From Cirrosporium novae-zelandiae (lineage: Eukaryota): 64,000 nucleotides of DNA. The first letter of the stretch is position 1; every line of letters begins with the position of its first letter. The notes below the pieces were generated by a model. The model searched no databases. It was not told where the DNA came from and saw only the letters and a program-made list of their open reading frames with translations. Location of the stretch: contig JAPETS010000007.1 of the NCBI GenBank assembly GCA_026023565.1, positions 806,001 through 870,000 of the forward strand. The letters are read 5' to 3'. Positions 2,459 through 23,877 of the stretch are shown here, piece by piece. Position numbers and translations under genes: made by a program.

Positions 2459-4651
2459 TTAGGGTTGGGTTATGTTAGATTATATTGGATTAGCGCATAT
2501 GTATAGTATAGTGTATTTGTATGATGGTATGATGGTATGTTTAGTGATGGGCAAAATTACGATATTCATGTAAGTATATACAAATATACGAAGGACAATT
2601 TATCTATATTACATCAAATATCTACATGTATTCCTAGCCAACACCAGACCCGTATATATAATGATACGTCAATTATCATAATTAATATTCAAACTAATTA
2701 GTCTATACGTTTCGACTCTTTAGACTAATTATTGAAGAATTTTATTTTCACTCACTCGTTTGCCTACCTACCTACCTAGGTACTGTACCTTCGTCACTGC
2801 TCCTCCAACATGTATGTTAATATATACCCCTGATATAAGATGATGATGATGATGATGATGTAAGAAATGGAAATGGAATAATTCCAAATAAGGAAGGAAT
2901 AAAGGGGGGGGGGGGGGGGGGGGGGAGAGAGGACTCAGAGGAAAGAGATCTTTTATTATGATCTCTGTAAAAGTATATGTATATATGTAGTTATCTCAAC
3001 CACAACCTCGAATTTTTCATTCTCAATTTTCTCATCAGACGTACATGTACATGTAACATGGATATAAGGACAACAAAATGAAAATTTTTTTTTTTAGTAT
3101 TAGTATCAGTATTAGTATTAGTATTAGATCTAAAGTTGATTGGTTGGTTGGTTGGTATAAATTATCCGCAGAAATGAAATATCCTTGTTCAAACTGCTGA
3201 GTATTAAGAAAAAAAGAAAAGGATTAAGCCTTTCTTTTCCTTCTTCCTTCCTTAGACTGCAAAGATATCTAAAGATATCTAAAGTGATGTCCCTAGCTGT
3301 ATCTCTTCCTTATCCCTAACCCCCCCCCCCCCTTATAGTAGGATGGATTCCAGTACTCAAGTCTAGAAGGTGTATCTATTTCTCAAAGACCGATCGACAT
3401 ATGTTTCCCTTCCTATTTATTTATTCATTCATGTATATAGAATTAATTTTTTTTATTAACAATAAGGCGCATGCATACGTTGTATGTTGTAAAACAAACT
3501 GATAATTAATTATTCGGGGTCCTATCAACCTTTGGATAACGGATAACACCTCTGCTCAGGCCATATATATACTGTGGGCACCTATCTACTACTCTACTAT
3601 ATTTCACCATCAATCACCAATCAACCATCCCATAAACCATCTTATCTCATCCTATCCCATCACATCCCATCCTAGCCTGGCCGGTTACACTAAACCCCTC
3701 CATCCAATCCACATCCACGTCCAGAAAATTTCCAACTCGTCATATTATTTATTGGCCACTTACTTCTTAACAATCTAATCTCCCTGTAATAGGTAATATG
3801 TAATAGGAGGATAGGAGGATATGAATCCGATGCTTCTGTCATGTGGAAGAGGATGTGTGTACATGTATATGGGTGGCACATGTCGTCGGCTAACTGTACC
3901 GTACAACCTCATTTGATTTTTGCAGTTTTTTTCTTGGCCTTGGTGAGGTGAGTGAGTGAGTCGTGGGAATAGCAAATGTATAGCTAAGGCTAGAGCGACA
4001 GCGACAAAAAAAAACCCCCCCCACTAAGAAAATTATACCTCCTCTCCTTAACGGGTATAATTGATACTCCCTATACCCTACTCCAACTCTCTACATTCCT
4101 CATTAAGACCTCAACCCTCAGAGAGGTAAGAAATAAAAGATCGAACGGGCGAGAGAGAGAGAGAGAGAGAGAGAAAGAAAGAAAGAAACAAGATGAGATT
4201 ACTGGATAGATGGATATATAATTAAATAAACAGATACTAAATGCAATAGATACTATCTATATTGGAGTTACATATTGACTGCGCTATGCTCGATATAGAC
4301 ATGACATGCAATTACTAAGTTAATTACCCAGTATGCCCTAGCCCACTTTTTGATTAACTCAACATCGTAGATAGATGGATGGAATGGATGGATGGATGGA
4401 TGGATGGATGAGAAGAAAGGGAGAAAGAAAGAAAAGGGGAGGGGGGAATTGGGATTGGGATTATATTATATTTCATGATGTGATAGTGACGGTGACGGTG
4501 ATGGATGGAGAGGATTTGTGTTTGAGCTGCGTGGTTCTAATAATAATAATATTGTTGCTTTGAGTTATATAGAAATCTAGATATATATGCACGTTGATTT
4601 ATTTATTACAACTCACCCATCCACATCCATCCCCATAAATCAACCAACCAA

Positions 4652-5239
4652 TCAATCAACCCACCTCTTCTGCTGTCCACAAAAATCCTTTCCCCTCGGA
4701 TCCCCCGGCAAAATAGTAATCGTACTCGCCACAATCCCCACCAAATTTTCTGTAGATGTCGTTGTCCCCGTAACTTCATTCCCATAACCATCCACGTAAA
4801 CATAATTTGTATCCGTGATGGTGGTTTGGCCCGTGACGAAAGCCCCTGTTGTGGAACAGGTGATTGGGCAGGTTGTGGGGAGGACTGTGAAGGGGACGTA
4901 GCTTTGACTGTCGACGTAGGTGTAGAATGTGGAGGTTGTGGTTGTCAGAGAGGAGGAGGTGGTGGTGGTTGTGAGGCCGGTGGTTATGGTGGGGTTGGTG
5001 CTGTGGGGGTTTGTTAGGTTTGGGGGTACTGTTTTTGGGTTTTTGGAGGAGGGGGAGCTTACATAGTTATGGTTATGGTGGTCGTGCTGGCGGTGGCGGT
5101 GACAGTTGTTGTTGTGCGTGTGAAGGTGAAGTCGGGGCTGTTGGGGGGGTTGCCGTTTGTAGAGGAGGAGGAAGTCGACGAAGAGGACGAAGAGGATGAA
5201 GAGGATGAAGAGGATGAAGATGATTGAGAGTTACTCGAG

Positions 5240-5280
<41 letters not shown>

Positions 5281-7919
5281 GGTAGTGGTAGTAGGGTGAG
5301 AAATAGTCGGCTGAATAAGTCTCTCTTCAAGTACCATTTCCCCTGTAGACGCAATTATAGGTAGTATAGATGATTTGCAGGGACACACTGTAACGAGCGT
5401 GTGAATAGTGACCGTAACATAAGCCGGTAGGTCCATCGAGCCAAGAATCTGTCTACTTAAAGACGGTGCCATAAGGGGGGGCGGAGCTGAATTAGAAGCT
5501 GTGCTCAGTGCTAGAATGCTGGAAGCTTGGTAGGCGTTGCAGTGGGTGCAGATGGTTGATGTGGTAGTCACCAGGATTGTTGATATTGTTGAAGAAGTTT
5601 GAGTAATAGCCTGGTTGTTCGAGATGATGGTCTGGATCATGGGACAAGTTGTTACCGTCGTGTGAACTCTATTAAAATATTGAGTTAGTACAAATCTAGA
5701 AGGGACTTTTAGTGTTCCGATTTAATATTGAATTAGATTGGCAGTAAGTCCACTGGATGAAGGAATTGATAATTAGAAATTCTGAATTCAGAAACTTACA
5801 TCACTGTTGTAATTGCTTCTTGGACTTCCATGGAAGTAGAAGAACTTGCGTTGGGAACGGAAGTAATGGCTGTAGCCGTAGTTGAACTACCGCCGAGCTG
5901 GCTGGAACTATACGATCTTAAGACAGAATAGCTTGAGGAAATTCCTTGACCCAAGGCTGTCGAACTCGTAGTTGCCAAAGATGTCCCAGAGTTGTTCGCC
6001 CCAGTGCTCATTAGTGATGTGCTGGATGAAGGAAGCCCTGAAGATAAAGAAACGCTGGATAACTGGTTCCTTGAAGCGGTGCTATCTCCAGTATCAGTAC
6101 CAAGGAGTAGCGACGAAGTCGATTCCGAATAGCTCATACTGCTCAAAGAAGTAGACGAGAAAACTGAGCTTGTTGTAGAGACCACACTAGAAGAAGATAC
6201 TAACAAAGACGAGGATGAGCTACTTCCATTTGGATCCGCCAAAAAGGGTATTGCAGCAGAAGTTAGGCTGATACTATCGCTTGAGCCAGTGGGATTAGGA
6301 TTTGGAGATATTGTGCTAGCAGTCGTACTGGAGCTGATGCTGCTAGGATCTCCTGCTGACGATTGCGTTGAGCTGGTACTTGGACTGGCACCATCAGGTC
6401 CCGAACATGATGACGAGAAGGTAGAACCAGAGGGTGTGTTGCCTAGGTTAATCGAAGGACCTTGGGATAGAATGTTACTGCTAGTTGCCGAAAGCGGGAG
6501 TGTTGAACTAAGGCTTAACATAGTGCTGTCCGTCAATAAATTTGACAAGCTTGAACCGGACACAGTGCCGCTTGTTTGCGAGGATGAAACCAAAGTTGAT
6601 ATCGATACAGTGCTGAGGGATGTAGAGATAGACATAGGGATGGAAATATCTGTGGAGCATGTTCCTGAACTCGTTATGGAATTGAGCGTAGAACTAGAAG
6701 TCCCTACCGTGGATGTCTCCGTAGAATAATCGGTGGGACTTGAGATGGAGCTAGTTGTCAAGCTAGTTGTTGAGCTAGATATAGAGCTGGACGTCTCCGT
6801 AGAACCCTCTGTGGAGCTCATAGTTGAACTCACTGTAGACGTAGAGCTTGCTGTAGAGCTTTGTGAGGAGCTTTCTGTGGAACTCGAAGTCAAACTCGCT
6901 GTAGATGTAGAACTTCCCGTAGAACTCTCCGTAGAAGTTGAAGATGAGCTAAATGTAGTCATGGAACTTGTGGAGCTGCTTGTGAAACTTTGCGAGGTAC
7001 TTGTCGAATCTGTCGAATCTGATGTAGAGCTTGATGTAGAACTTGACGTAGAACTTTCAGAGCTAGTTTCTGAGGATGAAGTCATGGTCGTTGAGATTGT
7101 GCTGCTAGTCTCTGACGATGAACTTGATAGACTAGAGCTGGAAGTACTGCTATCAAGTGTGCAGTCTGTAGCCGTTATAAGACTATAGGCTTCACCAGAA
7201 AGCGTATAAATTGAGGTTGTAACCTCAGTAGACGTTGAAGAGTAACTTATAAATGTTGAAGTACTTGACGGGACTGTAATACCTGGTAAGGTCTGAGTGG
7301 TGGTTGGAGGAATAGTTATGGTTACAGTATCCGTTGTTGGTGACGGGCCAATTGAGATTGCATACGAGCCAGCAGCCTGCTCCCCTACAGCAGAAAATCC
7401 AATAGTTAAAGTCCCAGGAGGTATAAGGTATTCATAAATAGGGCAGGCCATTGTTGTGACAAAGGTAGTCGTGGCACTACCAACAGATCTTGAATCACAA
7501 ACAATAACATTTGTTGACTTTCCATCGGCACCAAGAATATAATTCGGTAGAGTGAGCAAAGGAGTGACATAAGCGCCGGGTGCTGTAAAATATATATTAG
7601 CCAAAGAAAGGTTTATGAACAAAGTCACTTGACACAATGATTGAATAGAATATGGTAATTTTATATTTTAGAGATGCAGACGGACTACTCATTATGGTTC
7701 CAAGATTCTCAACTCAATTGCTGTTACGGCTTTGTGGGCTACTCTTCAACTATTTACTTACCACCGGTATAAGCGAGTGTTGCCAAGATATTCCATGTAG
7801 GAGTACTTCCACCTGTTGGAGAGGTAAAGGAGTATACAGTCGGAAATGTAAAACCGTTGGTGGCGCTCGTAGCTGTGACAGCGCCTTGGAGGGCTGGGGC
7901 AGAAAATGAGACGCCCATA
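4652..7919 (-). CDS. Large Ser/Thr-rich mucin-like cell-surface or cell-wall protein, multi-exon; 5' end uncertain
   Basis: ORFs 5796-7637 and 5059-5640 are extremely S/T-rich with T(V)CP motifs. A further exon at about 5005-4652 (…TTCPITCSTTG…KDFCGQQKRWVD*) follows a GTAAGC donor. A probable upstream exon at about 7919-7765 reads MGVSFSAPALQGAVTATS…. Confidence 0.6.
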
Positions 7920-10093
7920 TTGGAACAATGAAAGTGAAATGATGGAATTTGAGAGTAGATTCCGTCGAAATGGTCGGGATGGCCTGATCAAATTGATGCT
8001 CAAACCCCGACTACAGACACATTCATGCTTCTCTCGAGATGTAACGATTCATATGCAAGTAAACAAAATGTGACAGGCTTATGCAAAAATTGTAAATCAA
8101 GAAGAGCGGGTAGTTAATGTAGAAACCCAAAGGAAAACAAGGTCAGCTAACTTCAGCTAATAAAGCCTTTTAGAAGAAAACACATGTTCAGAATAGGAAA
8201 TAGCATCGAGCCAGCATGGTAGAAAGATATTCGAAGCAATGAACAAAACACAACGGCTTCACCCTAAAAGAAAAGTGCCGCATAGGCTTCCAATTGATTA
8301 TTCGGATTTACGGAGGCATCAATGTCCTTCACGACGGTCAAAGTATGTCATCTGGTGGCGTTGTGCCACTGTCAATAAAGGGGTTCATTCTGAGCTTTAT
8401 GAGACTATGATTGGTCTCGTGAATATTCCGATATGCCAAAGGGAAGAATTTGGTATTCGATGAATGTAAAGGAGCAAAATTCTAGATTAACATGAGACAT
8501 GAGGGCTTCCATGAAGTTCTATGGTTGTAAATTTATTTAAGATTGTGGGCAAAGCAAAGTCGTAAATTTTAACTCGGGGCTACATACTTGGTCCCCTTCG
8601 AACACCGAACCAACGAGAACTCTGCAGATTTGTTGGTCACTACCACAGTATTGTCCACATCAATGACCAATGATCCATGAAGCAATCGTCTCTCGACTTA
8701 GCTAACACCTTAGTTAATCAACCAATCGTGACCTTTCTACCTCCACCTTCACCTCCACCCTCCACCCTCCACCCGACCGTTTCTCCCGACCCTTTTCAAT
8801 CTCAATTTATTAAACGATCGTGATGCTTCCGAAATTTGTATAAATACCAAGCGCCGTTCGATAGTTGTCAATATAGTATAGAGTCGCTTTTGTGAAGTGA
8901 ACCCGATCACTAGAAAGAGTAGAGAAAGAGCGGAGATTCTATAAAGTAGACTGCGGGAGGTGTAGGTGGGTATTTAAGTGAGAAAGCGGAAGAATTACTG
9001 TCATAGGACTCTGGCGTATAAGAATGAAGCCGGAGAAATGTACAATCCTCAGCTGTCGTTTAGTTGAGCATGTCGTCCTGAGATATCTACTGTATAATAT
9101 GCTAGACTGTTTTTCCTTCGAATTGACTTCCAAGGGGCAAGACTAGAATTTATTCTCATTCAAATTTCCCTTCCGACTGACTCCATCATTTCCTATCCCC
9201 TTATATCCAAAGTATGAATTCTGCTTACTCAAGTCAAATTTATTCTCCACCTCGATATCCAGACCAAGGAATTATTTATCGACCTTAAAGAGTTGGTCGG
9301 CATTTTAGAGGAGCTAGGAGCCTTTAGGGGAGTCACGCAAGTCGAGGTAGAAGAACCCGATGTCTTTGAAGCTAAATACAAGCATTTAGATCCTGCTTAA
9401 TCCAAGTCCAGGGGCTATGAGTATATTCTCGGGATATGTGGGGAGACCAGGGAATGAAGATGGGTTGGTATCCATGTCGTAGGGGTGGAGATTAATATGA
9501 TGAGATTGCAGTAACTGGTCTAGGATAAACTAGAAAACATTTTCTGGAACATTTAGGTCGATCTTTTGCTATTTTAATGTTTCTATGATATTGTATCTTG
9601 CAGCTCCCCATCTGATACTTACAGTTTCTGCCTAAGGCATGAAGGCTTCAAGATAATTTCAACAGCGGCTAGGAGGCTCCCGAGGATATAAATAGTTATC
9701 TAATCATTGACTCCCACTTTACGGTATCTTAACATCGCTATCAGTTCCTCACACGCTCGCCAAACCCCGATCTAAACTTCGGTCCATACCCTCAATCCAT
9801 TTCTACACATTCGGAAGGACTAAAGAGAATCTATTAATTAAATTGATAGCCAATATGCCGACCTCGGATTTTCGCGACCCCTTATGATAAATGCTACGAA
9901 ATGAGAATTGTATAAGAAAACGTAAAACCCTCTCACCCTTGAGGGAGGAAAATATTCACAATGGCCTCAACTCTTTCTAGCCTTTCAACTTGATACATTT
10001 CATCATTAGGAGATCCACAAATTACCAGTCTGCCTGATACCTCTCGTTTAAGAAAGTACACAATTGATATTTAAAGTATCATTACTTTGCAGG

Positions 10094-11437
10094 ATGCGTA
10101 CCTCTGTCGGTATCTTGGCCGCACTAATCCTTGGTGTGAAATCCTCCAAACCGATATCTACGATCTACAGCCGCAGACAGCTCAATACAAACGGTAGCAC
10201 ATTAAAATATGGCTCTCCAGAGTCAGTTGGTCTTCTGTCACAGCCGTTGAAGGATATGGTAGTCAACATAACCGGATATACCCTCCCAGCGAACTATGGT
10301 AGCTTTACAGATGAAATAGTTCACCCTATCCAGCCAGGAAGTGTAGTTATGGTTGGGCATCAGTCAGTTATTGTCAGTCACTTTGCAAATGGGAAAACAA
10401 ACCTCTATGCAGATTCCAATGGTACTTATCTTCCGGAGGATGAACAAATAGCCACCGAACTAGGCACCATCTATGACATGGCCAGCTTAACAAAGATCTA
10501 TACCACTATCGCCGCCTTGCAGCAAATTGATGCCGGAAATCTTTGCATAAATGTAACAGTAGCATCATACCTCCCTAAGTTTGCAACTAATGGCAAAGGA
10601 AATATCACAATTCTCATGCTCATGACCCATACTAGCGGATTCGATGCGGATCCGGATCCAGCTCTATACTCTTCAAATTATACAACGATTGCACAAAGAA
10701 TAAATGCCATAATTACTCAGAAAATTATCAATACGCCTGGTAGTACGTATCTCTACTCGGACCTGAATTTCATGAACCTTGGGCTTGTGCTCGAGGAAAT
10801 TACTGGCAAGAAGCTTGATGAGCTCATTTATTCACTTACTTCAGTGCTTGGAATGAATAGCACATTCTTCAACCGTGGCAATACAGAGGGGGCAGCTTTT
10901 CCAGAATATCCTAGAATGGTCACTGAAGAGTATCAAATCGAGGTACTTGGAGAAAGCGAACCCCACAGGCCTCAGCCAGTTCGAGGAACTGTGCATGATG
11001 AAAATGCATGGTCTGTAGATGGTGTTAGTGGACATGCAGGTCTTTTCTCCACTGTAGCAGATACAGCCATACTTTGCCAGATGATTCTTAATAATGGAAC
11101 TTATGGAGGTAGAAAAGTCTTGGAGCCGGAGACTGTTGACCTTATATTTACTAATTTTAACGCCCGTTTCCCTGATGATGCACACGGCCTTGGCTTTGAA
11201 TTGGACCAATACTATTTTTCTGGCCCCATGGCGAGCTTGCAGACTGCTGGACACACAGGATACACAGGAACTACCATGGTCATAGACCGGCCGACCAATA
11301 CCTTCTTCATTCTTTTTGCTAATCGAGTACATCCTAGCCGTGAGTGGTCTAGCAACAACATTGTTCGAGAGGCTCTAGGTTATTGGGTTGCACTCGCGCT
11401 TGGAAGAAATAACGTCACGTTTCCTTCGCTCAGTTAG
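10094..11437 (+). CDS. Secreted beta-lactamase/PBP-fold serine hydrolase, AmiE/YbbE-like (putative N-acetylmuramoyl-L-alanine exo-amidase or esterase)
   Basis: Intronless 447-aa ORF with signal-peptide-like MRTSVGILAALILGVKS. Motifs: SxxK (MASLTK), LMTHTSG, YLYSDLNF, RGTVHDENAW, GHAGLFS, GHTGYTGT, NRVHP. Many N-x-S/T sequons. Confidence 0.85.
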   Translation: MRTSVGILAALILGVKSSKPISTIYSRRQLNTNGSTLKYGSPESVGLLSQPLKDMVVNITGYTLPANYGSFTDEIVHPIQPGSVVMVGHQSVIVSHFANGKTNLYADSNGTYLPEDEQIATELGTIYDMASLTKIYTTIAALQQIDAGNLCINVTVASYLPKFATNGKGNITILMLMTHTSGFDADPDPALYSSNYTTIAQRINAIITQKIINTPGSTYLYSDLNFMNLGLVLEEITGKKLDELIYSLTSVLGMNSTFFNRGNTEGAAFPEYPRMVTEEYQIEVLGESEPHRPQPVRGTVHDENAWSVDGVSGHAGLFSTVADTAILCQMILNNGTYGGRKVLEPETVDLIFTNFNARFPDDAHGLGFELDQYYFSGPMASLQTAGHTGYTGTTMVIDRPTNTFFILFANRVHPSREWSSNNIVREALGYWVALALGRNNVTFPSLS

Positions 11438-12104
11438 AGCACAGACTTGTGGTGCTGGATTTGTTCGATATATGTGATTGATCTCAGTTTGAAAAATTGC
11501 TGCAAGGAACTTGGTACTTACTAGCCTAAAACTTTTTGTACAGAAACCTAGCTTAGTATATATCAAGAACATTTCCAAGCACAGATGTATGATCCTCAAT
11601 ACAGCGTTCATCGATACTCACTAGAATCTGCCATTCACTATTCCCTCGTTCGACCCGCAAACCCCGCACTAGAAAACGCGGAGTAGCCGAAGACATCGGG
11701 CTTGCTTCTCATTATGGCACATGAAATAGATAAGAAATCCAAATAGATCATAGTACAAGTCAACAAGATGGAAAACAGATCATCCTAAATTAAACGGAGC
11801 AAATAACTTTCAAGTCATTTGATATGATTTAATAAAACAAACAACTCGCTCAACAGGAATTATATTCAAAAGAGGCAAAAGTCCAGATATACTCTGTTGG
11901 ACCACTTTAGCTAGAGCTGTCCACTTGACATGATTATTTAATGGCGGGACATGACTAAAGATAGTATGGGTTTTTGGAGATATCTACAGACTTTGGAGAA
12001 GTTGTGATTTAGACATCGTGTCCATTATATGAATTTCTCATCCTTCCCCCACAAAGGAAGTAGAATAGTCTCTATAAGCTTTAACTCAAATCTCTGAAAA
12101 GTGA

Positions 12105-13669
12105 TTATTTCCCTTCAAGTTCCAACGATATCTTTGGAGGGGCAGAAGCCTCTTTATCAAAGCTGTCCTCAGAATCAAGTGTCCTACTTGTCATCGTAAC
12201 AGTCCACACAGTTGGAATGGCAATGATTAATGCTGCAATACACAAACCCCAGTCCATTCCGAGCTGTGTCATTGGCGATTTGTCCAAAGCATTAATCCTC
12301 CAAGCCATTGCACCCCCAGTGGCTTGGAATGTCTTGTACGCTCCGACAAGAACAGCCGCAACAGTAACAGAGTTGGATTCTGTTCCAATCAGCCAGTAAC
12401 AGAACGACTGCCAAAGTGCATCATAACCCCCGTAAAACATGTACAAGAGCATTGGTCCAGCCGAAAGCGATCCCTCGGTGTAGTCGATATCCTGTTTGAG
12501 CCCTTTCGCGAGACGCCTATCTTCCCACTTCTGGAACGCATAACCGCCACCCCAGATTGCGAAACCGGATATCATAAGCACAGCCCACCCAAGACGAGAA
12601 CGCTGTCGTCGGTTGAGGGATGGAAAATCAAGTAGGGTTCCCATCAGGAAACCACCCGCCATCTGTGCGATCCAGTACAGCGCACTGTTCAGGGACCGCG
12701 TCCGGATGTTGAAGGTTGTGCCGTTTACATTATTTTGCTGGTAGGAGTAGAACACGTTTGCGCAAAAGAAGAGAGGGAGCATGCAGATAACCCTCCAACT
12801 AGCTAGCGCATTTACCATTGGTCGTATCCTATGCATCAAAGAGCCTTTCTCGTCTTCAGGTTCTTCATGGAGTTGGGTTAATCTGACTTTCGAAGGGGGA
12901 CAGATGAACACTCCAACAACCCAACCAACAGCCATGACGACCATGAGTGCGATATAAGTGGCATCTGACACCGTCCCGCTTGATGAATGATAGTTAAGTC
13001 CGAAGCTTGCGAGAGAGCCTACACCGCCTCCGAGATTGAAGATGATCCAGAATACGGCTATAGCCCTACCCTTTTGAGATTCAGGAACATAGGTGGTCAT
13101 GATTGCTCCCTGGGAGACCCAGAGAAAGGATGCACCAACTCCAAGGAGTGCTCCAGCAGCAATGACAAATGCGCCATTTTGAGTTGCTGTGATGAAAAAG
13201 TCAGTCTATATCCCTCATCCATCAACAAACAAAAAAAATCATATAAACTTCTTTTAAACTTACAGTTAAAATTCAACAAACTCCCTGCATACAAGGCATA
13301 AGTCCAGCCCCCAAGTAGCCAGCAAAGCCTCGGACCTAGAATAGAAAACACCGGACCAACAACAAACAGTGCAGTCCCTGCGGTTGCAGAGAGAAGGGCC
13401 ACATTGGCATTGGCTGCGACAGTCGAATCAACCTGGCCGGAACCTCCTAACCCTGAAAGCGCATTGTACATCTACGCCTCGAAATTCAGTCAAGACATAT
13501 TATGGATGAATTTACTATACGGGAGGATGAAGAAGTAGCTTACGCCCGGACAACAGAAGCAGATAAAACTGATTAGTAATACCTGGGTCCATGGATGCGT
13601 GTAGAATCCAGAAAAGGAGGATGTCGGTGTCGTTTCCAGGAGTGGCGGTGTTGGCTCTGTTGCTGCCAT
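12105..13669 (-). CDS. UNC-93-like/DUF895 MFS transporter (NGT1/NOPE1-like amino-sugar transporter family)
   Basis: Exons 13669-13544, 13471-13264 and 13186-12105 splice in frame via GT-AG introns (471 aa). Motifs: QVLLISFICFCCPGMYNALSGLGG, FLWVSQGAIM, KGRAIAVFW, FNIRTRSLN. About 12 hydrophobic segments. Confidence 0.85.
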
Positions 13670-14126
13670 GGTTCCTTGAAATTTCATCCAGAGTTGGTGA
13701 AGGTGGAAATAAAAATAGTCGGTCCAGCTATACTAATAGCTAAAATGAACCTTCCCTTGTAGTCATATAGATCTGATTTCTGCTATGTTAGGGAACATGA
13801 GTATGAATTAATTATATAAATTCCGGATGTGGATTCTCAGACAACTCCCCTGCCAACTCGGCTTATCTACGCCGATAGCGCTTATCTCCTCAACACCCGA
13901 CCATGAATCCAATTAAGGAATATTGCACCGAAATGTTACATTTCAGAGAAGTATCGCCTTATCTTCTGTATTGTGTTGTAGAGCACAAGAGGTGAGGTGG
14001 TTGTCGTTGCATCGTCAATCGCATTGAAAATACTGGACGAGGTTTTGGGTTGATGGACTAATAATAGGTAACCTGGAAATTTCTCCGCATGCAGCATCTA
14101 TTCCTATATGTATCTACCACAGAAAC
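13670..14126. promoter_or_regulatory. Divergent promoter shared by the transporter and the murQ-kinase gene; GATA sites and a 15-bp palindrome
   Basis: 457 bp between head-to-head ATGs. CTTATC at 13862, 13881 and 13958, GATA at 13874, and GAAATGTTACATTTC at 13930-13944. Confidence 0.55.
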
Positions 14127-16473
14127 ATGTCACCCATCGATCTTTCAACGCTGCAGACAGAAGGTTCAAATCCTAGGAGTACTGACATTGATAAAGTATC
14201 AACTCTTGAGCTATGTCAAATTATCAACAATGAGGATGCAACAGTGGCTGCGACGGTGGCCAAATGTCTACCTATCATTGCGGCCGCCATAGACACCCTG
14301 ACACCTCGAGTTCGCTGCGGCGGACGAGTAATATATGTTGGCGCTGGCACCAGTGGAAGGTAAATATTAAATCAATCAATCAATATGTAGGAGTCAAGCT
14401 GCATAGAATTTTCCTTTTCAATTAGCCGGCTGCATAGGACTTACCAGACGTCTTCTTACAACTACAGACTAGGTGTAATCGACGCATCTGAAATACCCCC
14501 AACTTACTCAGCACCGCACGAACAATTTGTAGCACTGATAGCTGGAGGCGATGCAGCTATGCGTGTCGCTCAAGAAGGCGCAGAAGATAATATCGACCTT
14601 GCAAAAGCTGATCTACAGGTCTTGAAACTTGATCCTAGAATGGACTCTGTGATTGGCATCGCGGCCTCGGGAAGGACACCGTATGTTTTGAGCTGTCTAT
14701 CGTATGCAAAGAGTTTGGGATGTGTAACGGTGGGGGTTGCATGCACCTTCCCATCCACCATGAGCGAGTCGGGAACAGTGGATTTTATGATTAGTCCTGT
14801 TACCGGCGCCGAGGTGGTGACAGGCTCTACGAGGATGAAGGCTGGGACGGCGACAAAGCTTACGTTGAATATGCTGAGTACGGGCATAATGATTAAATTG
14901 GGAAAGACGTTTGGGAATATGGTACGTTTGCTGAAAACATGGTTATGTAGAGGATATAGAGAGTGATTAAGTCTGAGTAATTGTGAGGCTGACTGACTAT
15001 TCACTTAGATGGTAGATTTAAAAGCATCGAACCTGAAGCTACAACAACGGTCACGTAACATAATTCGAAAGCTGTGTGGCTCGCTTTGTCCTAACTCTGA
15101 CGACGAGATAGATGCTCTTATATCAAAGTGTAACGGAAGTGTTAAACTTGCACTAGTTACTTTAACTCTTAATATGTCTGTTGAAGAAAGCGCTCGGCGT
15201 ATCCAAGATGCAGAGGGAAGCCTATCAGCTGTGCTAAGGAGACATGAGGAGCAACGCCTGAAAGGTGAAATTAAAGAGAAATCCCAGATGGAGAATTTTG
15301 AGCCTGTTGACTGGGTTTTGTGTGTTGATGGCGGAGGAACGAAATGTACAGCTATGATCAAGGGACAAAATGGCGAATTTGGTGAAGGGGAGGCTGGGAA
15401 TTGCAATGTGTAAGCTTCTCAGATAACTGCTAGCTTTAGCCTGCCTCCCATTAAACTGATATATTCATAGCACCGACGTTGGTACGGATTCCGCAGTATC
15501 TTGCATCAGTACTGCAGTTCAACGAGCCCTTGATGCACTTGCTACAAAAAAAGCTTCAACCCCACTTAAACTCCAATCCATCCAATTCTCCGCCGTGCTG
15601 GTTGGCCTAGCCGGCTACGAACGACCCGGAATCCGCTCCGGTATCAACTCGGCGCTCTCAGCCCTCTTCCACCACCCGGTAGGGCTAAAACTAAAGATCA
15701 TGAACGACATTGACATGCTAGCCACGGTCGCAGGCAGCAAATTACCAGTAGGAACTTCGATGTTCGTGCTCCTAGCCGGGACGGGCAGCGTAGCTATGAG
15801 ATACCAACGTCAAGAATCGGAGTTCATCAGGACCGGACGGTCTGGAGGTTGGGGCCACGTGCTCGGAGATGATGGCGGTGGATATTGGATGGGGAGACAG
15901 GCGATCCGAGCCACATTGTTGGCGCTAGATGAACTTCGGAACGAAACTGACGGTGATGGTGGTGACGGTGGTGATGCAAGAATATCATTCCAGGATTTGG
16001 GACATCTTTCCCAGAAAGTCATGCAACACTTTGAGCTGACTGAAGAAACTGCTTCTGACTCCGACCTCCTCAGCACCATCCTCGCACCTTTGCAGTCGAA
16101 CCCCAATGCAGGTTGCCCAAACATCAAGGCCAAAGTATCCAGCGCCGCGAAGCTGGTTCTGGAAGTTGGTATCACCGATCCAATCGCCCAAGACATTATG
16201 ACCATCGGCGTCCAGGAACTCATCCAGGCCCTCAAACCCCTCCTATGTCTAACTCCAAGCACTACAGCTAGAAAAAGACCTCCCCCCGATCCTAAAAACT
16301 CCGTATTAGTCTTTGGAGGCAGCCTACTCTGCAACTTGATATATCAAAAAGCGGTTCGGCAAAAGCTAGACGAAAATGGAATCTGTTTTCTGCATGTTGA
16401 GGTTGTGAATCAGCCTGCATGGAGCGGTGCCGAGTTCCTTCGGGATTGCTGCTGGACGGGTTTTAAGAATTGA
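14127..16473 (+). CDS. murQ: N-acetylmuramic acid 6-phosphate etherase (MurQ) fused to a C-terminal BadF/BadG/BcrA/BcrD-family (MurK/NAGK-like) amino-sugar kinase
   Basis: Exons 14127-14359, 14468-14921, 15009-15409 and 15471-16473 splice to a single 696-aa ORF. MurQ motifs: [78 protein letters not shown]. Kinase motifs: [39 protein letters not shown]. Confidence 0.9.
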
Positions 16474-17764
16474 AGAAGAAATGGCTGACATTTATTAAAT
16501 TTAGGCATTTTTTTAAAGGTGGTGGGTTAGGTTGGTCTAGGGGTGGGGTGACAATAGATGGCCTGGTTTGTGGTATCGTATAGTGTAGATGGGGGTGAGG
16601 GGGGTTATCTAACTTCATCTACTATAGTAAGTACCTAGGTAGATATCGTAAACATAACTAACGGTAAATAGGGTTTCACATCTCACCAAATCCAAACCGC
16701 AAACCAGCTGATCTGCTCGTGCCAATTAAATTATAAATCAGAAAAACAAAATCTCTTCTTCTACTTCTTCCGCTACTTCTTTCCTTTTAGCACATATATA
16801 TACATCTCGATTTACTTATCTCTCTACTATTACCTACTATCAACAAAATGGGGGTTTCAACTAGTTACCCAGGTACTCACCAGGCATTGGCTGCTGGGTT
16901 TTCATTGCCGTAAACATTCCTTCCTGTCTTCCTCCCAGAGTCTAATCTACGCATTACAGATCTACCTTTTCTTTCCTTCTTTCCTCCAACACACCCTTCT
17001 CATACAATCATTAATAACTTGAAGAGAAAGAACCTGCACACATGAGCTTTGAGTTGTCCATAGATTAGTTCTTGAACTAGAAGGAAAGAGTGAAGTATAT
17101 GAAAGGAAGCAGCATGCCCTTTTTTCCCCTCCTTTCATTCACCATGTAGCACCTTGGACAAGAACTTATCCCTCGGTGACCTACTATTCTATAGTCAAAA
17201 TCATTATAACCATGACTACGAAAGGAAAGAACATTTTCAAAGAAAAGTGCCCCCGGTCCTCCTTTCCCTTTACCTTCCCCTCGAGAATTACTACCAGGCA
17301 TCTCACATAAAAATCCAGCCTGATCTAACATCCTACATCCTTCATCAACATCCGCATTCACATCATGCAATTAAGCCCCTACATTTATTTTCTTTTCATT
17401 CATTTTTTAATTTTTTTTTCTCTGCCCATATAGCATACCACTTAATAGGATATAGGCGACACCAGAGCACGACCAAGTACTATAAATTTTTGGCACTTTT
17501 GGAACCGTTGGAACTTGGTACCGGTACTTTGGACGGAGACTGTTGCGCTAGGGGCCTAAACCCAACGATAAATGGGTGGAGTGGGATCGTTGAGGAATAA
17601 TTGATTGGTTTGGGTGGGCTTTTTAGTGTGTAATACAGTGAACGAGCAACGGGAAGAGAACGTACCAGCATACACATCGCATATACACACATTGTTTTAG
17701 ACCTCGATATCTATCCATACCAAACCCCCCCCCTTTAGCCTTGGTTGTCTTTCTCACTATCAAA

Positions 17765-18484
17765 ATGTGCTACACCCGTGTCCGCCGCCGCTGCACACTC
17801 TGCGGCATCAAGGATACAATAAATATCCGCTGCAACCGCGAGGGATGCACCTCGGAAGAGATAACCGATTTTGTGTTCAGACGAATTCGAATTGCTGGGT
17901 GTAGGATCTGTCGCAATGAGCATGGTGAGTTTTTTGCGGAGCTGATGGAGAGGGAGAAGGACATGGAGAAGATATGGGTAACGAGATTTGCGAGGAGATT
18001 TCATAGAGGATGCAAGAGAGAATGGAAGAGGCTGCGATTGAGGATTAAGGAGAAGGGGAAATCTACGTGGGAACATGTGCGGCCACCTCCGAGCCCATCT
18101 TTATCTATCTCTACGCTTCCACCTTCACCTGAGTCTGCGGATCCACCTGTGCCTATGTCTACGCTTCCACCTCCAGCTGTATCTGCACGGCCATCTATAG
18201 ATGTGTCTGTACGGCCATCTATAGATGTGTCTGTACGGCCATCTATAGATGTGGCTGTACGGCCATCTATGGATGTGTCTGCACGTCTACCTACAACTGT
18301 GTCTGCACGTCCACCTCTGCATAGAGCTGTGATTTCGTTTCCGTTTGTACCTAGGCGTAGATCCCTGACCCCACCAATGGAATCTCCGGCAGAGTCTTCG
18401 GGTCAATCTCCAGCTGAAGCTTCGGCTTCAACTCGGACGAATAGGGGTAGATACATTGGATTCAGGAGGATCCCACGCCCATAG
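17765..18484 (+). CDS. Hypothetical protein with Cys-rich N-terminus (CTLCG…C…C…CRIC) and Pro/Ser-rich repeat tail
   Basis: ATG in good context (AAAATG). MCY…CxxC pattern typical of small fungal orphan proteins. Internal RPSIDVSV repeats preserve the frame. Confidence 0.5.
   Translation: MCYTRVRRRCTLCGIKDTINIRCNREGCTSEEITDFVFRRIRIAGCRICRNEHGEFFAELMEREKDMEKIWVTRFARRFHRGCKREWKRLRLRIKEKGKSTWEHVRPPPSPSLSISTLPPSPESADPPVPMSTLPPPAVSARPSIDVSVRPSIDVSVRPSIDVAVRPSMDVSARLPTTVSARPPLHRAVISFPFVPRRRSLTPPMESPAESSGQSPAEASASTRTNRGRYIGFRRIPRP
18182..18285 (+). repeat. 24-bp coding minisatellite, about 4 copies
   Basis: Unit GTACGGCCATCTATAGATGTGTCT, directly repeated with no spacers; each unit contains the palindrome CATCTATAGATG. 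Confidence 0.9.
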
Positions 18485-19684
18485 GCATGATGTCGTGTGT
18501 TATGAATTTTGTTTGCGGGATGTGATGTGTGTGTTGGATTTCGGATTCAAGAGAAGTTTTTTTTTTTTTTTCTGTGGATGTAAGGTTTGAATTATGGTTG
18601 GAATGAAGATGAAAGGTCTTTATGATGCGGATGGATGCGCTGCTGGGAGCCTATATGTGAGGCTTCGTTTTTTGTTTTTTGTTTATTGGAGTTGAATTGA
18701 GTGTGGGAATTGGGCATTATATTCATGGCCTGGTTCGTTTTTTGTTGTTGTTTATTGATGCTGATATACTAATGAGGACTGTGCTATACAGAAAAGCGAT
18801 TAGGTTTTAGGGTATATTGTTAAAAATCGGGTTAAGTAGTGAAATTGGTGCGTGCTGAGGATGTTTTTTTGTATTTCTCGTGTTTTTTTGTCATGTTGGT
18901 GTGGGGATATCGTTAGCCAACATGAGGTTACGTAGAGAAGACTCTTGATGAGCGGATCCTGAATCTTGTACGTACAGAATGAACCTCTTGTTTAAATGAT
19001 TCATTAGAGATGGTTTGGAGTCAAGTAAAGTTGGATGTTTTTTCCTTTCTTTTCTTTTTTTTTTAGTCATGGAAATGGAAATGGGATATAGGTTTGAATT
19101 CAGGTAAATAATAAATGGAAGGGGGGGGGGCGGTTATTAATTCTGGGCATGTGTATATAATATATATATATTTGTTGAGGGGAAGGGAAGAGGGTAGGTG
19201 GTTTAGAGTCATGAATATATGAATATTCAACCTCGACTCTAAATTCTCGATTCTTATTTACTTGCTGATTTTCTTATTTCTATTGAGAGACGGAGGCGTG
19301 GGATAGTGGGATAGTGGGATCGTGTTACTGTATGAATGATTTATATACTATACACTGTATAAGCCACCCTGACTAAATCTGAAATGGAATGAATGGATGG
19401 ATGAATGGCATTATTATTATTATTATTATTATTATCAAGTTTTATATTTTATTTCATAAGGTTATCTAAGCCCTAGCCTGAGCCCTAATTATCCCGATTT
19501 CTGCAAAGACTAGACCAAGCCAGATTAGATTACACCAGACCAGACCAGACCAGACCACATTAGTTAAGGGATTTGATTATTGATAAACGCTTTTCTTTTC
19601 TTTTCTTTTCTTTTCTTTATTGTTTTATTTGAAAATGTGAAAACTTGGAAATGCTGAAATGCTGAAATTGGGGGAGGGGTCATA

Positions 19685-19727
<43 letters not shown>
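19685..19727. repeat. Poly-G homopolymer (about 43 nt)
   Basis: Uninterrupted G run in an intergenic region. Confidence 0.95.
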
Positions 19728-19728
<1 letters not shown>

Positions 19729-21291
19729 GGAGTGGTGAGAGAGATAAAAGGATAAAAGATATGGAAGATAAGATGGGATGGAAGGTTTTGGGGATTGAGA
19801 GAGGGAGAAGGGAAAGGGGTGGTGAGATCTTGATTGATTCCCTATCTATCCATCCGCCTATCCATCTATTTGGTCTCTCTCTCGTCCAAATACAGACATA
19901 CAGATTTCCCTTTTCTTCCTTTAACCCTTCCTTGTTAAGATGGTAGTGTTCCCATTCCTGATTCCCATTTCCATTCCTTACCCTCTCAAAAAACAAAACA
20001 AATAAATCTCTAAATCTTAAAGAAGGTTCCCGTTCCGTGCCAGTGTCACTGCCAGCCGTGCTAATGGTTTCTTTTCGTTATGTGTGTGCTATGCTGTGTT
20101 TTGACATATATACTGTACCCCTCAAATCGAAGGGGATGGGATGGGATTTTATGTGTATGGTTGAGGGATGGATTAAAGACTGGACACTCAATAGTGAACA
20201 CCTGAACTGCCAGGGAGTGATTAGTCTTGTCGGTCTAATTTAGTATTGCATTTGCATTTCCTTTGATTGATTGATTGATGGTTAGGAGTTACAAACTCTA
20301 TACTCTATATTCCATCTTAAAGCGTCTCTCTCTCCTTATATAAATAATAAATAAAAAAATAAAAATTGGATTGGTTGTTGGAGAGGGGGGGGGGGTGAAA
20401 GATAGAGAGGATGGATAGATTGAATAATGAAGACGGGAAGACTGAATTTCCTCGGGGCGGCGGGGCGGATTGAACTGGTCGGGCCTGATCTGATTCTATT
20501 CCTCCGGTAGAGTAAATAACATGACATGTAGGTTCGTGGATCGTGGTATATAATATATCGAGTAATTATTTCAGATTCCTAGTCTCATAGTCTCGGTTTT
20601 ACATTGATGGATGGATGGATGGATGGATGGGGTGGATAATTGGGAGTTTGGAGTTACATACTCTATACTCCATACTTTCATCTTGAAAAATCCCTCTTCT
20701 ACCTAAATAAAAAATAGAAATTAGAGTAAGAAAATAAGAATCAGAATAAGAATTATATAACTATATCGAGGGGGTTTAGTGTACTTTATAAAACAAACAA
20801 ATAAACAAACAATACCTATTCCTATTCCTATTTCTATTCCATTTCGCATACGTACATGTACATGTACCTATATACCAGAAAGAGAAATAGAAATAGAAAT
20901 AAAAAGTTGGATGGAGACCTGGTTGGTTGTTTCGTGTGAGGAATTTTTGTTCTTTGAGTATATATGGACATGGACATGGGATATTGGTGGAAAGTGGGAA
21001 GGGGGTGGTGGAAGATGGATGGGTTTTGGGAGGGGATTGGATGTGGTTATATATGTATATATGTAGACATGGAGAGAGAGATGAGGCACATAGGCTAGGG
21101 CTCGAAGCACCTACAGCACCGATGAACTTTTACATTGAGAGGAAAATCCAATTTTTGTGAAATAATCTAGGCTAGGGTTCTAGCGACTTTCAAAACTAAT
21201 TACACTTCCATATTAAGACGAAAAACTCCAACTTTTATAAGGAAATCTAGACTACATGCATGTATGTTGGACTCTCCCATTCCTACGCCCC

Positions 21292-23877
21292 TCACCTGAT
21301 TTTCGGCAACGGCCCAGGAAATGTAGTGAGGTATGCCATGACCGTCGGATCCACAAGCTCTTCAAGCGTAAACATGTACAGCGGCGAGTCCTCCTCCTTC
21401 TGCTGCTGCACCTCGAGCTCCTCCTTCCTCTTGCAAAAAGCCCTCAGCTCCTTACAACCCACATCCCCCTTCTTCTCCAAAAACTCCTTCATGAGGTTCC
21501 CCGACCGCGTGAGCATCAGGCTGTGCGTCATCACCGACTTGATCCCCATCTGCAGGGCGGCCTTGCCCGAGTTCATTGCGGCTAAAAGAACGTATAGGGG
21601 GATACATGGGAGTTGGGACTCGTTTTCGATGTACTGCGGGCCGTTGTACTGGACGAGTTTGTCGTGTAGTTCGGTTCGGAGCGAGCGCAGGAGTTCGATG
21701 CATCGTCGGTGAAGGCCGAAGTAGTTGAAGATGAGTCTGTTCTCCTCGTCCTCGAGGCGTTCGCGCAGCGCAGCGAGGAGCTGCAGGGAGCTCATTTTGT
21801 GGGATTTTTCCCATTGTCGTTGCAGGAGAAGCTCACCGGTTCTGGGACGGTGGGCCTTGGTGGTGGCATCTGCATTGGTTAGTTCGTTGAGGAGCTTTTC
21901 GATGTTATAGACGGAAATGTCGATGGAACCGTTGTTGCAGTACCGGCTTTTGAAAACCTCGGAGACGATGGATGTGTCTTTGAGACCCCGTGGTCCGCTC
22001 TTGGATATTATGTGGTTGAGACTGTCGGGCCGTTTTGTACCCCCTCGAAAGGAAATGGCCCCGGGAGCAACACCCATGGTGAGACAGGCCTTTTTGTACG
22101 AGTCTTCGACAGTTTTGGGCTTGGCACCAAAGAAAATTCGTTCTTCGCCGTGGAATTGAATCAACTTTTCCATGTCTGGCCAGTTTAGAGTTACCACGCC
22201 GGTTTGCTGGACCGCATTCAACAGATAGATCAGATAGACGACGGTCCCCCATGCATTGACAAAGGTGATGCCCGCTTCTTGCATCTTGAGGTTGACATTG
22301 AACATGAGAAGGCCACAAACCAACGGGTGCCGTTCGTAGAACGAAAATTCTTGATGGTCCATGGATTGGACAGGGGCGGCATGCTTCTTGACTTCATAGA
22401 GGTTGTCCCTTGTAATCCAGAAATCAATCATTTCTTTTATCTGCTCGAGGCCTCTGTCGTTTCTTTTGGGCCACGTCCCTGGATATGGCAGCGATCGCGA
22501 GAGCTGGAAATGATCGTCAAGGATTTTTCGAGTTCGGAGACCCGCGAGACGGAGTTCCTGGAAGCCTTTCGATACATTTTCTCTCAAAACGTGGTGGATG
22601 TCCAAATGTACCTGAGTGGCAAAGGCAAGCCATAGAGGTATTTCACGAGTCTTGACCATCCGTCTCATACCTCGAGTAAATTCATCTTGTGATGGCATAT
22701 TCATGTCAAATTGCTCCAAGATTGCAAATTCAGGGAAAATCTCCAAAAGAATAATTTTATCTTCCTCCAATTTCTTTGCCGGTGACATCTTCGATCGGTC
22801 TTGAAGTGGATCGTATCTTCCAAAATGGCCAGGTTTGTAAAGAGGGATACAACCAGGCTCCAGTACTCGACAAAGCGCTTCCAGAAACTGGTACATAGGA
22901 ACATAAGACCATTCAGCTACGTCTGCAGCAGCTATATTGTAGATATCATCGGCTCGTTCACGGTAGCTAGGATCTTCTCCTCGAAGATAACATGCTGTAG
23001 CAAATAGGCTTTGGGATAGGTCTATCCACTCTGTGTATTGTGGATAAGAAGCCAAACACTCCTCGGTGATTTGGCGAACGAGATCGCAAGCGGTATTTGT
23101 GGTAATGGATGCACTCATCAAATCAGTATTCCCAGATTTATAATCAGCCCATATCTGTTGTATGAACTCTCGTATGTTGTGCATATCTTCAAAGAGGCAG
23201 TACACCTCAAATAATATAGACAAGATATCAATCTCTTTTTCATTATTTCCTTCACCTTCATCGACTTCAAAGGTTTGAGTCTGCGGTTCCTTCTTGCTGG
23301 TCATTTGGCTGTTACTAGTCATGTCAACATCGGTTTCTAGCTCTTCTGTCTCTAGTAAAGAGAATTTGTTGGCTAGCTCCTCCAAGGTCGGATTGTTGTC
23401 AACTTTTGGAGAGGAATCGGCTCGGAGCTTGTCTAGCTCCTTGTTGCTCAGTGGTGATAGTATTTCCAAAACCTCCTCAAACACAGTTATGAAGTACTGA
23501 TGCCCCTCGTCATTGTTGGTTACGTGCTTACTAAACCAGTTCGCACATCGCTTTCGTGCACCTATAGCACGTTGAGCGATACCGATGATGGCCAACGGCA
23601 CTTGGACAGCCTTTCCGGAGGTGGCAATTTGCTTAGCAAGAGAGGTAAATTCAGCCAAAGAGATCCTGTATTTGATGGGGGATGGGTTATCTTCATTGTT
23701 TTCCTTTTTCTTTTTATTCTTCTTTTTGCTCTTTTTCCCCCCACCTAGATTTGTGGTGGGTTGAGAGAATTCTTTCTGATAGCCGCATGTCTGAGCTGCT
23801 TTAACCAGCCAGGTGGTGAACCGATCAGTATCAGACTTGTAGCGTTTATAGCTACCGTATAGAAACTTGGGAAGCAT
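21292..23877 (-). CDS. DUF6604-like fungal hypothetical protein
   Basis: Intronless 861-aa ORF. N-terminal YKRYKSDTDRFTTWL followed by a Lys-rich stretch, AIGARKRCANWF, GHQYFI and HPLVCGL, all characteristic of this family. Confidence 0.75.
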   Translation of the reverse strand: MLPKFLYGSYKRYKSDTDRFTTWLVKAAQTCGYQKEFSQPTTNLGGGKKSKKKNKKKKENNEDNPSPIKYRISLAEFTSLAKQIATSGKAVQVPLAIIGIAQRAIGARKRCANWFSKHVTNNDEGHQYFITVFEEVLEILSPLSNKELDKLRADSSPKVDNNPTLEELANKFSLLETEELETDVDMTSNSQMTSKKEPQTQTFEVDEGEGNNEKEIDILSILFEVYCLFEDMHNIREFIQQIWADYKSGNTDLMSASITTNTACDLVRQITEECLASYPQYTEWIDLSQSLFATACYLRGEDPSYRERADDIYNIAAADVAEWSYVPMYQFLEALCRVLEPGCIPLYKPGHFGRYDPLQDRSKMSPAKKLEEDKIILLEIFPEFAILEQFDMNMPSQDEFTRGMRRMVKTREIPLWLAFATQVHLDIHHVLRENVSKGFQELRLAGLRTRKILDDHFQLSRSLPYPGTWPKRNDRGLEQIKEMIDFWITRDNLYEVKKHAAPVQSMDHQEFSFYERHPLVCGLLMFNVNLKMQEAGITFVNAWGTVVYLIYLLNAVQQTGVVTLNWPDMEKLIQFHGEERIFFGAKPKTVEDSYKKACLTMGVAPGAISFRGGTKRPDSLNHIISKSGPRGLKDTSIVSEVFKSRYCNNGSIDISVYNIEKLLNELTNADATTKAHRPRTGELLLQRQWEKSHKMSSLQLLAALRERLEDEENRLIFNYFGLHRRCIELLRSLRTELHDKLVQYNGPQYIENESQLPCIPLYVLLAAMNSGKAALQMGIKSVMTHSLMLTRSGNLMKEFLEKKGDVGCKELRAFCKRKEELEVQQQKEEDSPLYMFTLEELVDPTVMAYLTTFPGPLPKIR

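Follow-up and report, generated by a model that had tools for sequence, protein, structure and literature searches.

Within a window of 64,000 nucleotides from the fungus Cirrosporium novae-zelandiae (GenBank assembly GCA_026023565.1, contig JAPETS010000007.1, positions 806,001 to 870,000 of the forward strand), three adjacent genes lie between window positions 10094 and 16473. They encode a serine hydrolase of the beta-lactamase fold, a transporter of the major facilitator superfamily (MFS), and a fusion of the etherase MurQ, which acts on the 6-phosphate of N-acetylmuramic acid (MurNAc), with a sugar kinase. An earlier note, made from the letters of this stretch, had described these three genes and proposed that they form a cluster for scavenging MurNAc from bacterial peptidoglycan. 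Stop-to-stop frames, together with Pfam and NCBIfam profile scans, confirm the three adjacent genes at these coordinates, and all are real fungal genes. The features of the span are listed below.

10094..11437, plus strand: secreted-type serine hydrolase of the PBP4B/AmiE family (beta-lactamase fold); single exon, 447 amino acids
12105..13687, minus strand: DUF895/UNC-93-type MFS transporter gene; three exons, from Pfam matches and tblastn of orthologues
13688..14126, no strand: divergent intergenic region between the MFS and MurQ-kinase genes, bounded by both start codons; presumed bidirectional promoter
14127..15250, plus strand: MurQ domain (MurNAc-6-phosphate etherase) of the fusion gene, residues 1 to about 310; from TIGR00274
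~14361-14468 and ~14922-15008, plus strand: introns in the MurQ-domain stretch; from the fusion gene model
15321..16473, plus strand: BadF/BadG/NagK-type (ASKHA) sugar kinase domain of the fusion gene, residues about 334-696 and the stop codon; from PF01869
~15411-15471, plus strand: intron in the kinase-domain stretch; from the fusion gene model

The fusion gene spans 14127-16473 on the plus strand, with exons at 14127-14360, 14469-14921, 15009-15410 and 15472-16473 whose boundaries are good to about 2 nt, and its product is identical to a database protein of 696 amino acids (P0001). On the minus strand, the exons of the MFS gene run from approximately 13669 or 13687 to 13544, from 13471 to 13265, and from approximately 13190 to 12105 including the stop codon, a layout taken from tblastn of the orthologues P0140 and P0135. 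The two genes stand head-to-head with their start codons approximately 440-460 bp apart, and the exon models and profile scores bear out the earlier description of a MurQ-kinase fusion head-to-head with a DUF895 MFS. The same layout, with 420-1340 bp between the genes, recurs in 8 related loci. The hydrolase and MFS genes of the window are convergent.

The transporter and MurQ-kinase pair

The N-terminal part of the fusion protein scores 332.5 bits with the MurQ equivalog model TIGR00274 (cut-off 302), and two further MurQ models, NF003915 and NF009222, give 356.2 bits and 345.8 bits against cut-offs of 168 and 255, respectively. In a search of the PDB, residues 5-304 align with residues 5-297 of the solved MurQ 4S12 (E 3.7e-75), and a second structure, 4LZJ, is matched at E 3.4e-69. 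Identity with E. coli MurQ reaches 50% over 305 amino acids. Residues E86 and E117 align with E83 and E114 of the E. coli enzyme, which we take to be its catalytic residues, and both are invariant across 11 fusion proteins. The match to the glucokinase regulatory protein (GKRP) is far weaker, with an E value of 1e-17. Because the match to solved MurQ is so much the stronger, the N-terminal part is classed from its sequence as a bacterial-type etherase and not as the two-repeat GKRP form reported from protists. The domain agrees with MurQ in every sequence feature that could be compared, and etherase activity is a strongly supported prediction.

The C-terminal half is matched by the Pfam family BcrAD_BadFG (PF01869) at 56.9 bits, above the cut-off of 31.5. 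Its phosphate-binding motifs, consisting of D336-G338-G339, A465-G466-T467-G468 and G488/G489/G491/D496/G498, are invariant in the 11 fusion proteins, so that this half is assigned an ASKHA fold with intact phosphate-binding motifs. The top solved relative is 8ZO3, an 'N-acetylmuramic acid/N-acetylglucosamine kinase', aligned over residues 377-523 with an E value of 2.8e-12. Close behind it in the same search are a hexokinase (7.7e-11) and human NAGK (2.4e-8). Because these two are nearly as close as 8ZO3, specificity of the kinase for MurNAc is advanced here as an inference from homology. In the MurK kinase of Tannerella, S133-P134-L135 and T94 are described as small residues that leave space for the lactyl ether (PMC10465942, in the portion of the article available). 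Among the chains returned by the PDB search with the fusion protein, none had Tannerella or MurK in its molecule name.

The transporter matches the Pfam families MFS_1 and UNC-93. Its orthologues, labelled 'DUF895 domain membrane protein' in the source databases, are 66-76% identical and occur in many fungi. In bacteria, no DUF895-like MFS was present in any of 160 loci, comprising 80 murQ loci (0/80) and 80 loci of hydrolase relatives (0/80). Import of MurNAc is the function suggested for this protein by its conserved pairing with the fusion gene.

This pairing was followed in a metagenome scan anchored on the MFS, the middle gene, which gave 18 loci in which the other two genes were then sought by tblastn. 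The fusion gene lies divergently upstream in 10/10 loci in which upstream flank is present and the MFS is 63% or more identical (L001-4, L006, L007, L009 and L011-13). Two of these, L002 and L007, share 95% of their 12-mers and are treated as one, and L011, L012 and L013 are near-identical, which leaves 7/7 distinct loci positive. Five further loci (L005, L008, L010, L015 and L016), having at most 176 bp upstream, were left out of this count. The 32%-identical MFS paralogues of L017 and L018 are without a fusion gene, with merely 551 bp of upstream flank in L018. At L014:8746-10965, the MFS match is broken over three frames and the fusion gene is reduced to an 82-residue remnant. This locus is syntenic with L003, sharing its AP_endonuc_2, O-methyltransferase and AMP-binding neighbours, and its sequence looks like joint decay of the pair. 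The remaining flanking genes vary between the metagenome loci. In one of them, at L004:2052-3083, an open reading frame (ORF) of the ADP-ribosylglycohydrolase family (PF03747, E 2.7e-30) adjoins the MurQ-kinase gene. Beyond the metagenome, the pair is represented in Cladophialophora psammophila by A1O5_04665 and A1O5_04666, with consecutive tags and accession numbers. The adjacency of MFS and fusion gene is thus conserved across distantly related fungi, and because it recurs in other loci and genomes, it is more than chance.

The hydrolase and other accessory genes

The hydrolase matches the Pfam family Beta-lactamase (PF00144) with 159.6 bits and an E value of 1.4e-46. A database protein identical to it comes from a contig of 935,973 bp. 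Its best NCBIfam model is PBP4B (NF002968) at 167.6 bits, and the next model follows at E 1.2e-14. Aligned with E. coli YfeW (33% identity, E 3e-45), it retains the motifs of that protein as SLTK131 (SxxK), YSD221 and HTG387. A hydrophobic N-terminus is found in the hydrolase and its fungal orthologues, and 9 N-x-S/T sequons are present, features compatible with a secreted glycoprotein; the protein is probably secreted. It is filed, from these matches, as a relative of the PBP4B/AmiE subfamily rather than as an E. coli PBP4B equivalog. In these comparisons, B. subtilis AmiE was represented by the Planomicrobium locus L061, whose genes are those of the B. subtilis operon.

In other fungi, the hydrolase joins the pair in part of the sampled genomes. 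It adjoins the MFS gene in L011-13, from a Helotiales-like organism, in tandem orientation. Accession numbers or tags of the hydrolase and the MFS follow directly on each other in Leptodontidium sp. (KAH9224993/KAH9224994), in Cadophora gregata (ONS95_002788/ONS95_002789) and in Cadophora sp. M221 (IFR05_007037/IFR05_007038). Three Xylaria genomes each place the fusion gene 3 accession numbers from the hydrolase, and in Talaromyces stipitatus the hydrolase and the MFS are separated by 5. A different neighbour occupies L009:4071-5249, where a single-domain GH3 gene is convergent with the MurQ-kinase gene and adjoins it; among NCBIfam models the GH3 is matched best by the NagZ beta-N-acetylhexosaminidase, at E 6.5e-39 and below the cut-off. 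The earlier note had found no NagZ in the window and placed that step elsewhere, which does not hold for this related locus.

The conserved core is the divergent MFS and MurQ-kinase pair, and the hydrolase, or at one locus a NagZ-like GH3, is an accessory gene that joins it in some lineages. The linkage expected earlier for all three genes in other fungi stands for the pair, in the distinct metagenome loci and in C. psammophila, and the three-gene form is not universal.

Bacterial relatives and the origin of the parts

A scan for the hydrolase over one genome per prokaryote species returned 80 relatives. Within 7 kb of these, murQ is found in 17/80, a NagZ-like GH3 in 28/80 and murR in 13/80. 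Among the 13 best-ranked relatives, mostly from Pseudonocardiaceae and Kribbella and 40-44% identical to the fungal protein, murQ is nearby in 12, and the exception lies on a 4.8-kb contig. In Amycolatopsis (L020), the order is a GH3 nagZ, namZ (PF07075), the hydrolase (by tblastn match), an RpiR-type murR and murQ. The bacterial proteins nearest to the hydrolase, matched near full length, come from such nagZ-namZ-hydrolase-murR-murQ clusters of Actinomycetota (Amycolatopsis, Lentzea, Saccharothrix, Kribbella and others). In Planomicrobium, the order is murR-murQ-murP-hydrolase-nagZ, and in E. coli it is murQ-murP-yfeW. The label 'AmiE-like', given to the hydrolase from its letters, is upheld by the PBP4B best model, by the E. 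coli gene order and by the proximity of murQ to 12 of the 13 top bacterial relatives.

In a tree of the hydrolase, the 12 fungal rows, two Basidiomycota among them, form one clade with a Shimodaira-Hasegawa-like approximate likelihood ratio test (SH-aLRT) value of 100. This clade lies inside a 77-row, almost wholly actinobacterial clade (SH-aLRT 97), in a polytomy with a murQ-linked Pseudonocardiaceae clade and a Streptomyces clade of 38 rows that has no murQ within 7 kb. The tree is a quick maximum-likelihood tree of 93 rows, with SH-aLRT values without bootstraps, rooted on YfeW alone.

The fusion was sought among 1.84 billion representative proteins, and many proteins of 600-770 amino acids with a MurQ followed by a kinase were found. 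Twenty clusters were looked up, of which 12 carry fungal names, 1 is a Gemmataceae metagenome-assembled genome (MAG) and 7 are without an organism name. The fungal clusters comprise three Xylaria species (one cluster), Penicillium paradoxum, Aspergillus calidoustus, a Chaetothyriales species, Pochonia, Niveomyces, Kuraishia capsulata, Candida boidinii, Amanita thiersii, Cyathus striatus, Umbelopsis ramanniana and Smittium simulii. The fusion thus extends over Ascomycota, Basidiomycota, Mucoromycota and Zoopagomycota, along with a few Planctomycetota.

In bacteria, a homologous kinase directly follows murQ in approximately 11/80 murQ loci, mostly of Planctomycetota. The two genes form one ORF in L106 (638 amino acids) and L115 (632 amino acids), and they are fused in Gemmataceae MER3416581.1 too; the single-ORF forms of this phylum range from 632 to 646 amino acids. 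Four planctomycete murQ-kinase loci (L109, L120, L130 and L136) carry a hydrolase relative of 29-34% identity about 2 kb upstream of murQ on the opposite strand, and by sequence they are a bacterial parallel to the fungal three-gene form. They differ from it in being without a DUF895 MFS and in the placement of their MurQ.

Two quick trees of the MurQ domain, with root position not fixed, describe this placement. In the first, the fungal fusions form one group with a support of 92, which is not decisive. In the second, 13/14 fungal rows fall together, and the actinobacterial MurQs linked to the hydrolase make up a clade apart from them (100). The planctomycete fusions form a clade of their own that is not sister to the fungal clade. 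Because the actinobacterial MurQs are set apart in this way, the fungal pair was probably not transferred with the hydrolase, and en-bloc transfer of hydrolase and murQ from Actinomycetota, considered as a source of the cluster, is not supported by the quick tree. The cluster looks, from these trees, to have been assembled in fungi from a hydrolase of actinobacterial affinity, a separately acquired bacterial MurQ-kinase and a eukaryotic transporter.

Two sequences in this survey stand out by their position. In the second MurQ tree, the fusion protein of Smittium simulii (P0271) is separated from the main clade of fungi and placed among MurQs of Proteobacteria and Firmicutes with weak support (80), which may reflect a separate acquisition or a long-branch effect. 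In L100, labelled as a MAG of the archaeon Nitrosopumilus, murQ is followed by an overlapping kinase gene and the MurQ groups with Rubripirellula (SH-aLRT 99-100); this is probably a mis-binned planctomycete contig.

Two features of the window lie apart from the three genes. At 17642-18484, an open frame contains a tandem peptide repeat with several RPSIDVSV-like units in a proline- and serine-rich context, without a Pfam match. The intervals 4001-8000 and 18001-22000 have a strongly positive GC skew (0.16-0.28 in 2-kb bins), which is near zero elsewhere in the window.

A proposed MurNAc route and its alternatives

The core pair is hypothesized to be a module for MurNAc import and catabolism that is independent of the bacterial phosphotransferase system (PTS), a reading to which a probability of roughly 0.65 is assigned. 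Outside the cell, the secreted PBP4B/AmiE-type hydrolase would remove the stem peptide from MurNAc-peptides, whose supply would depend on lysozymes and hexosaminidases encoded elsewhere. Free MurNAc would be taken up through the DUF895/UNC-93-type MFS. The kinase half, judging from its homology and from the bacterial murQ-kinase operons, may then phosphorylate MurNAc at C6, replacing the bacterial PTS. The MurQ half is predicted, with strong support from its sequence, to cleave the lactyl ether and yield N-acetylglucosamine 6-phosphate (GlcNAc-6-phosphate) and D-lactate. Both products would enter the ordinary amino-sugar and lactate metabolism of the fungus. The interpretation of the earlier note as a whole is partly supported.

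The closest working analogue of the fungal module appears to be the murTKQ operon of Tannerella forsythia, which encodes a transporter, a kinase and an etherase (PMC10465942; this comparison follows the part of the article available). Both systems are PTS-independent and combine a membrane transporter, an ATP-dependent ASKHA kinase and a MurQ that yields GlcNAc-6-phosphate, and in both the three functions are encoded together. The fungal system differs in its eukaryotic host, in the joining of kinase and etherase in one polypeptide, and in its transporter, which is a DUF895/UNC-93-type MFS, MurT being taken by its description alone. In B. subtilis, the operon murQ-murR-murP-amiE-nagZ-namZ includes AmiE, a secreted exo-muramoyl-L-alanine amidase, and secreted exo-enzymes free MurNAc for uptake (PMC8054146, in the sections available). 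The likeness to this operon and to murR / murQ-murP-yfeW of E. coli lies in a MurQ encoded together with a secreted PBP4B/AmiE-family hydrolase, and in the NagZ-like GH3 of one fungal locus. Unlike these operons as there described, the fungal module is without the PTS transporter MurP, the RpiR-type MurR and NamZ, and a kinase replaces the PTS.

Etherases are described from two other groups of eukaryotes. The GKRP-like etherases of phagotrophic protists, Naegleria gruberi and others, were proposed to digest the walls of eaten bacteria (Veiga-da-Cunha et al. 2009, as far as that account was available). They resemble the fungal enzyme as eukaryotic MurNAc-6-phosphate etherases with a proposed role in bacterial-wall digestion, whereas the fungal form is a single bacterial-type MurQ, fused to a kinase and paired with a plasma-membrane-type transporter, which suits an osmotroph. 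In Camponotini ants, a murQ moved from Mollicutes and is likewise a bacterial gene fixed in a eukaryotic genome (PMC13320244). In contrast to the fungal module, it is a lone murQ read by its authors as immune defence, and the available part of that report describes no kinase fusion, transporter or hydrolase partner.

Several observations weigh against the proposed route or its three-gene form. Genes for lysozyme, NamZ, NagA and NagB are not seen within the window. In 8 non-redundant divergent intergenic regions, in which 6-8-mers were counted against shuffles, no common promoter motif rises above the shuffled controls, and the best words, e.g. CTTATC in 7/8 regions, stay within the shuffle maxima. 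In Polytolypa, the listed MFS and the fusion gene lie on different contigs, which may reflect a paralogue or a break in the draft assembly. Two further sets of observations concern the hydrolase and the substrate of the kinase, and bear on alternatives of their own.

The hydrolase may be a bystander, a secreted serine peptidase or esterase with another role (e.g. on D-amino-acid peptides), leaving a functional unit of two genes. It scores 167.6 bits against the PBP4B equivalog cut-off of 385, and it is adjacent in just one of the five distinct metagenome loci with at least 5 kb of relevant flank (present in L011; not adjacent in L001, L002, L003 and L009). In Penicillium paradoxum, its tag is approximately 438 away from that of the fusion gene, and in Arachnomyces sp. 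PD_36 and Niveomyces insectorum the two are on different contigs. The listed MFS of P. macrosclerotiorum, possibly a paralogue, is approximately 400 accession numbers from the hydrolase. The orientation also changes, from convergent in the window to tandem in L011, and the Streptomyces relatives are without murQ nearby. Despite this change of orientation, the adjacency recurs in three classes, represented by this Eurotiomycete, Helotiales and Xylaria. The nearest bacterial clades of the hydrolase fill the amiE slot of MurNAc operons, and the planctomycete loci carry its relative at a comparable place, about 2 kb from murQ-kinase. A bystander role is judged unlikely, while keeping an appreciable chance.

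It is improbable, in turn, that transporter and fusion enzyme form a true functional pair for another substrate, with MurNAc not the physiological target. This reading draws on the sole NCBIfam kinase match, NagK, which reaches 66 bits against a cut-off of 370, on the name N-acetyl-D-glucosamine (GlcNAc) kinase under which UniRef and other databases enter the fusion proteins ('glucokinase regulator family protein' being the other current name), and on the dual MurNAc/GlcNAc activity in the title of 8ZO3. No substrate work is apparent in the available portions of the literature mentioning 'DUF895'. Against it stand the MurQ domain, which exceeds its equivalog cut-off and keeps both glutamates, and the fusion itself, since a kinase joined to an etherase makes little sense unless the product of the one is the substrate of the other. 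The same kinase family directly follows murQ in bacteria, and the accessory neighbours, the AmiE-type hydrolase and the NagZ-like GH3, are peptidoglycan-trimming types.

Less probable again is a main role in signalling or defence, in which MurNAc derived from muropeptides would be imported and destroyed to sense or quench bacterial signals, or in which GlcNAc-6-phosphate would be topped up for chitin. GlcNAc-6-phosphate feeds both catabolism and wall synthesis by established biochemistry, and the defensive reading of the ant gene offers a precedent in the accessible text of that report. The substrate of MurQ, however, is a monosaccharide phosphate in the cytoplasm, and the enzyme cannot harm bacteria; the secreted exo-hydrolases adjoining the pair recall bacterial operons for nutrient rescue as they are presented in the available sections of PMC8054146.

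Bacterial contamination or mis-assembly, which the label of the source record as a MAG and the bacterial affinities of two of the three genes might suggest, is rejected because of the spliceosomal-type introns (3 in the fusion gene, 2 in the MFS), a G+C content of the three genes that matches their flanks, a position on a 936-kb contig among fungal genes that include Zn2Cys6 and DUF6604 types, and orthologues in many isolate genomes.

The MurNAc module thus remains the preferred reading of the core pair. As a eukaryotic route for consuming bacterial walls, which the earlier note had regarded as uncharacterised, the general idea was already proposed for the phagotrophic protists. A literature search gave no account of a fungal MurQ or MurNAc cluster, although homologues from eukaryotes or fungi may be treated in Veiga-da-Cunha 2009 and in Jaeger & Mayer 2008. 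In a Monascus genome paper, murQ appears only as an entry in a figure of the chitin pathway, and the ant paper, in the part available, states that murQ transfer to eukaryotes was unreported before (PMC13320244). What is new is the fungal, osmotrophic and clustered form.

To our knowledge, MurNAc is made by bacteria only, and a conserved fungal module for it would therefore mean that osmotrophic fungi, not just phagotrophic protists, harvest bacterial walls. In its widest form, to which even odds are given, the proposal is that fungi of at least four phyla, equipped with a dedicated pathway assembled by horizontal gene transfer, are direct consumers of bacterial peptidoglycan. The DUF895 MFS would then be the first eukaryotic MurNAc transporter, the kinase-etherase would channel MurNAc to GlcNAc-6-phosphate and D-lactate, and secreted AmiE- and NagZ-like exo-enzymes would have been drawn to the locus repeatedly.

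For the protein families concerned, the pairing offers a first candidate substrate for a large orphan family of fungal transporters (DUF895/UNC-93-like) and a function for a protein called 'glucokinase regulator family protein' or 'GlcNAc kinase'. It also presents a catabolic cluster whose bacterial parts, acquired separately, were apparently combined within a eukaryote. In soil studies, muramic acid commonly serves as a marker of bacterial residues, and fungi and animals receive muropeptides as signals; both matters would be affected if fungi were a sink for MurNAc. In conclusion, if the proposed route is true, the turnover of muramic acid by fungi would amount to a genuine flux in soils, in lichens and in hosts, and muramic acid would not be a conservative marker of bacterial necromass.

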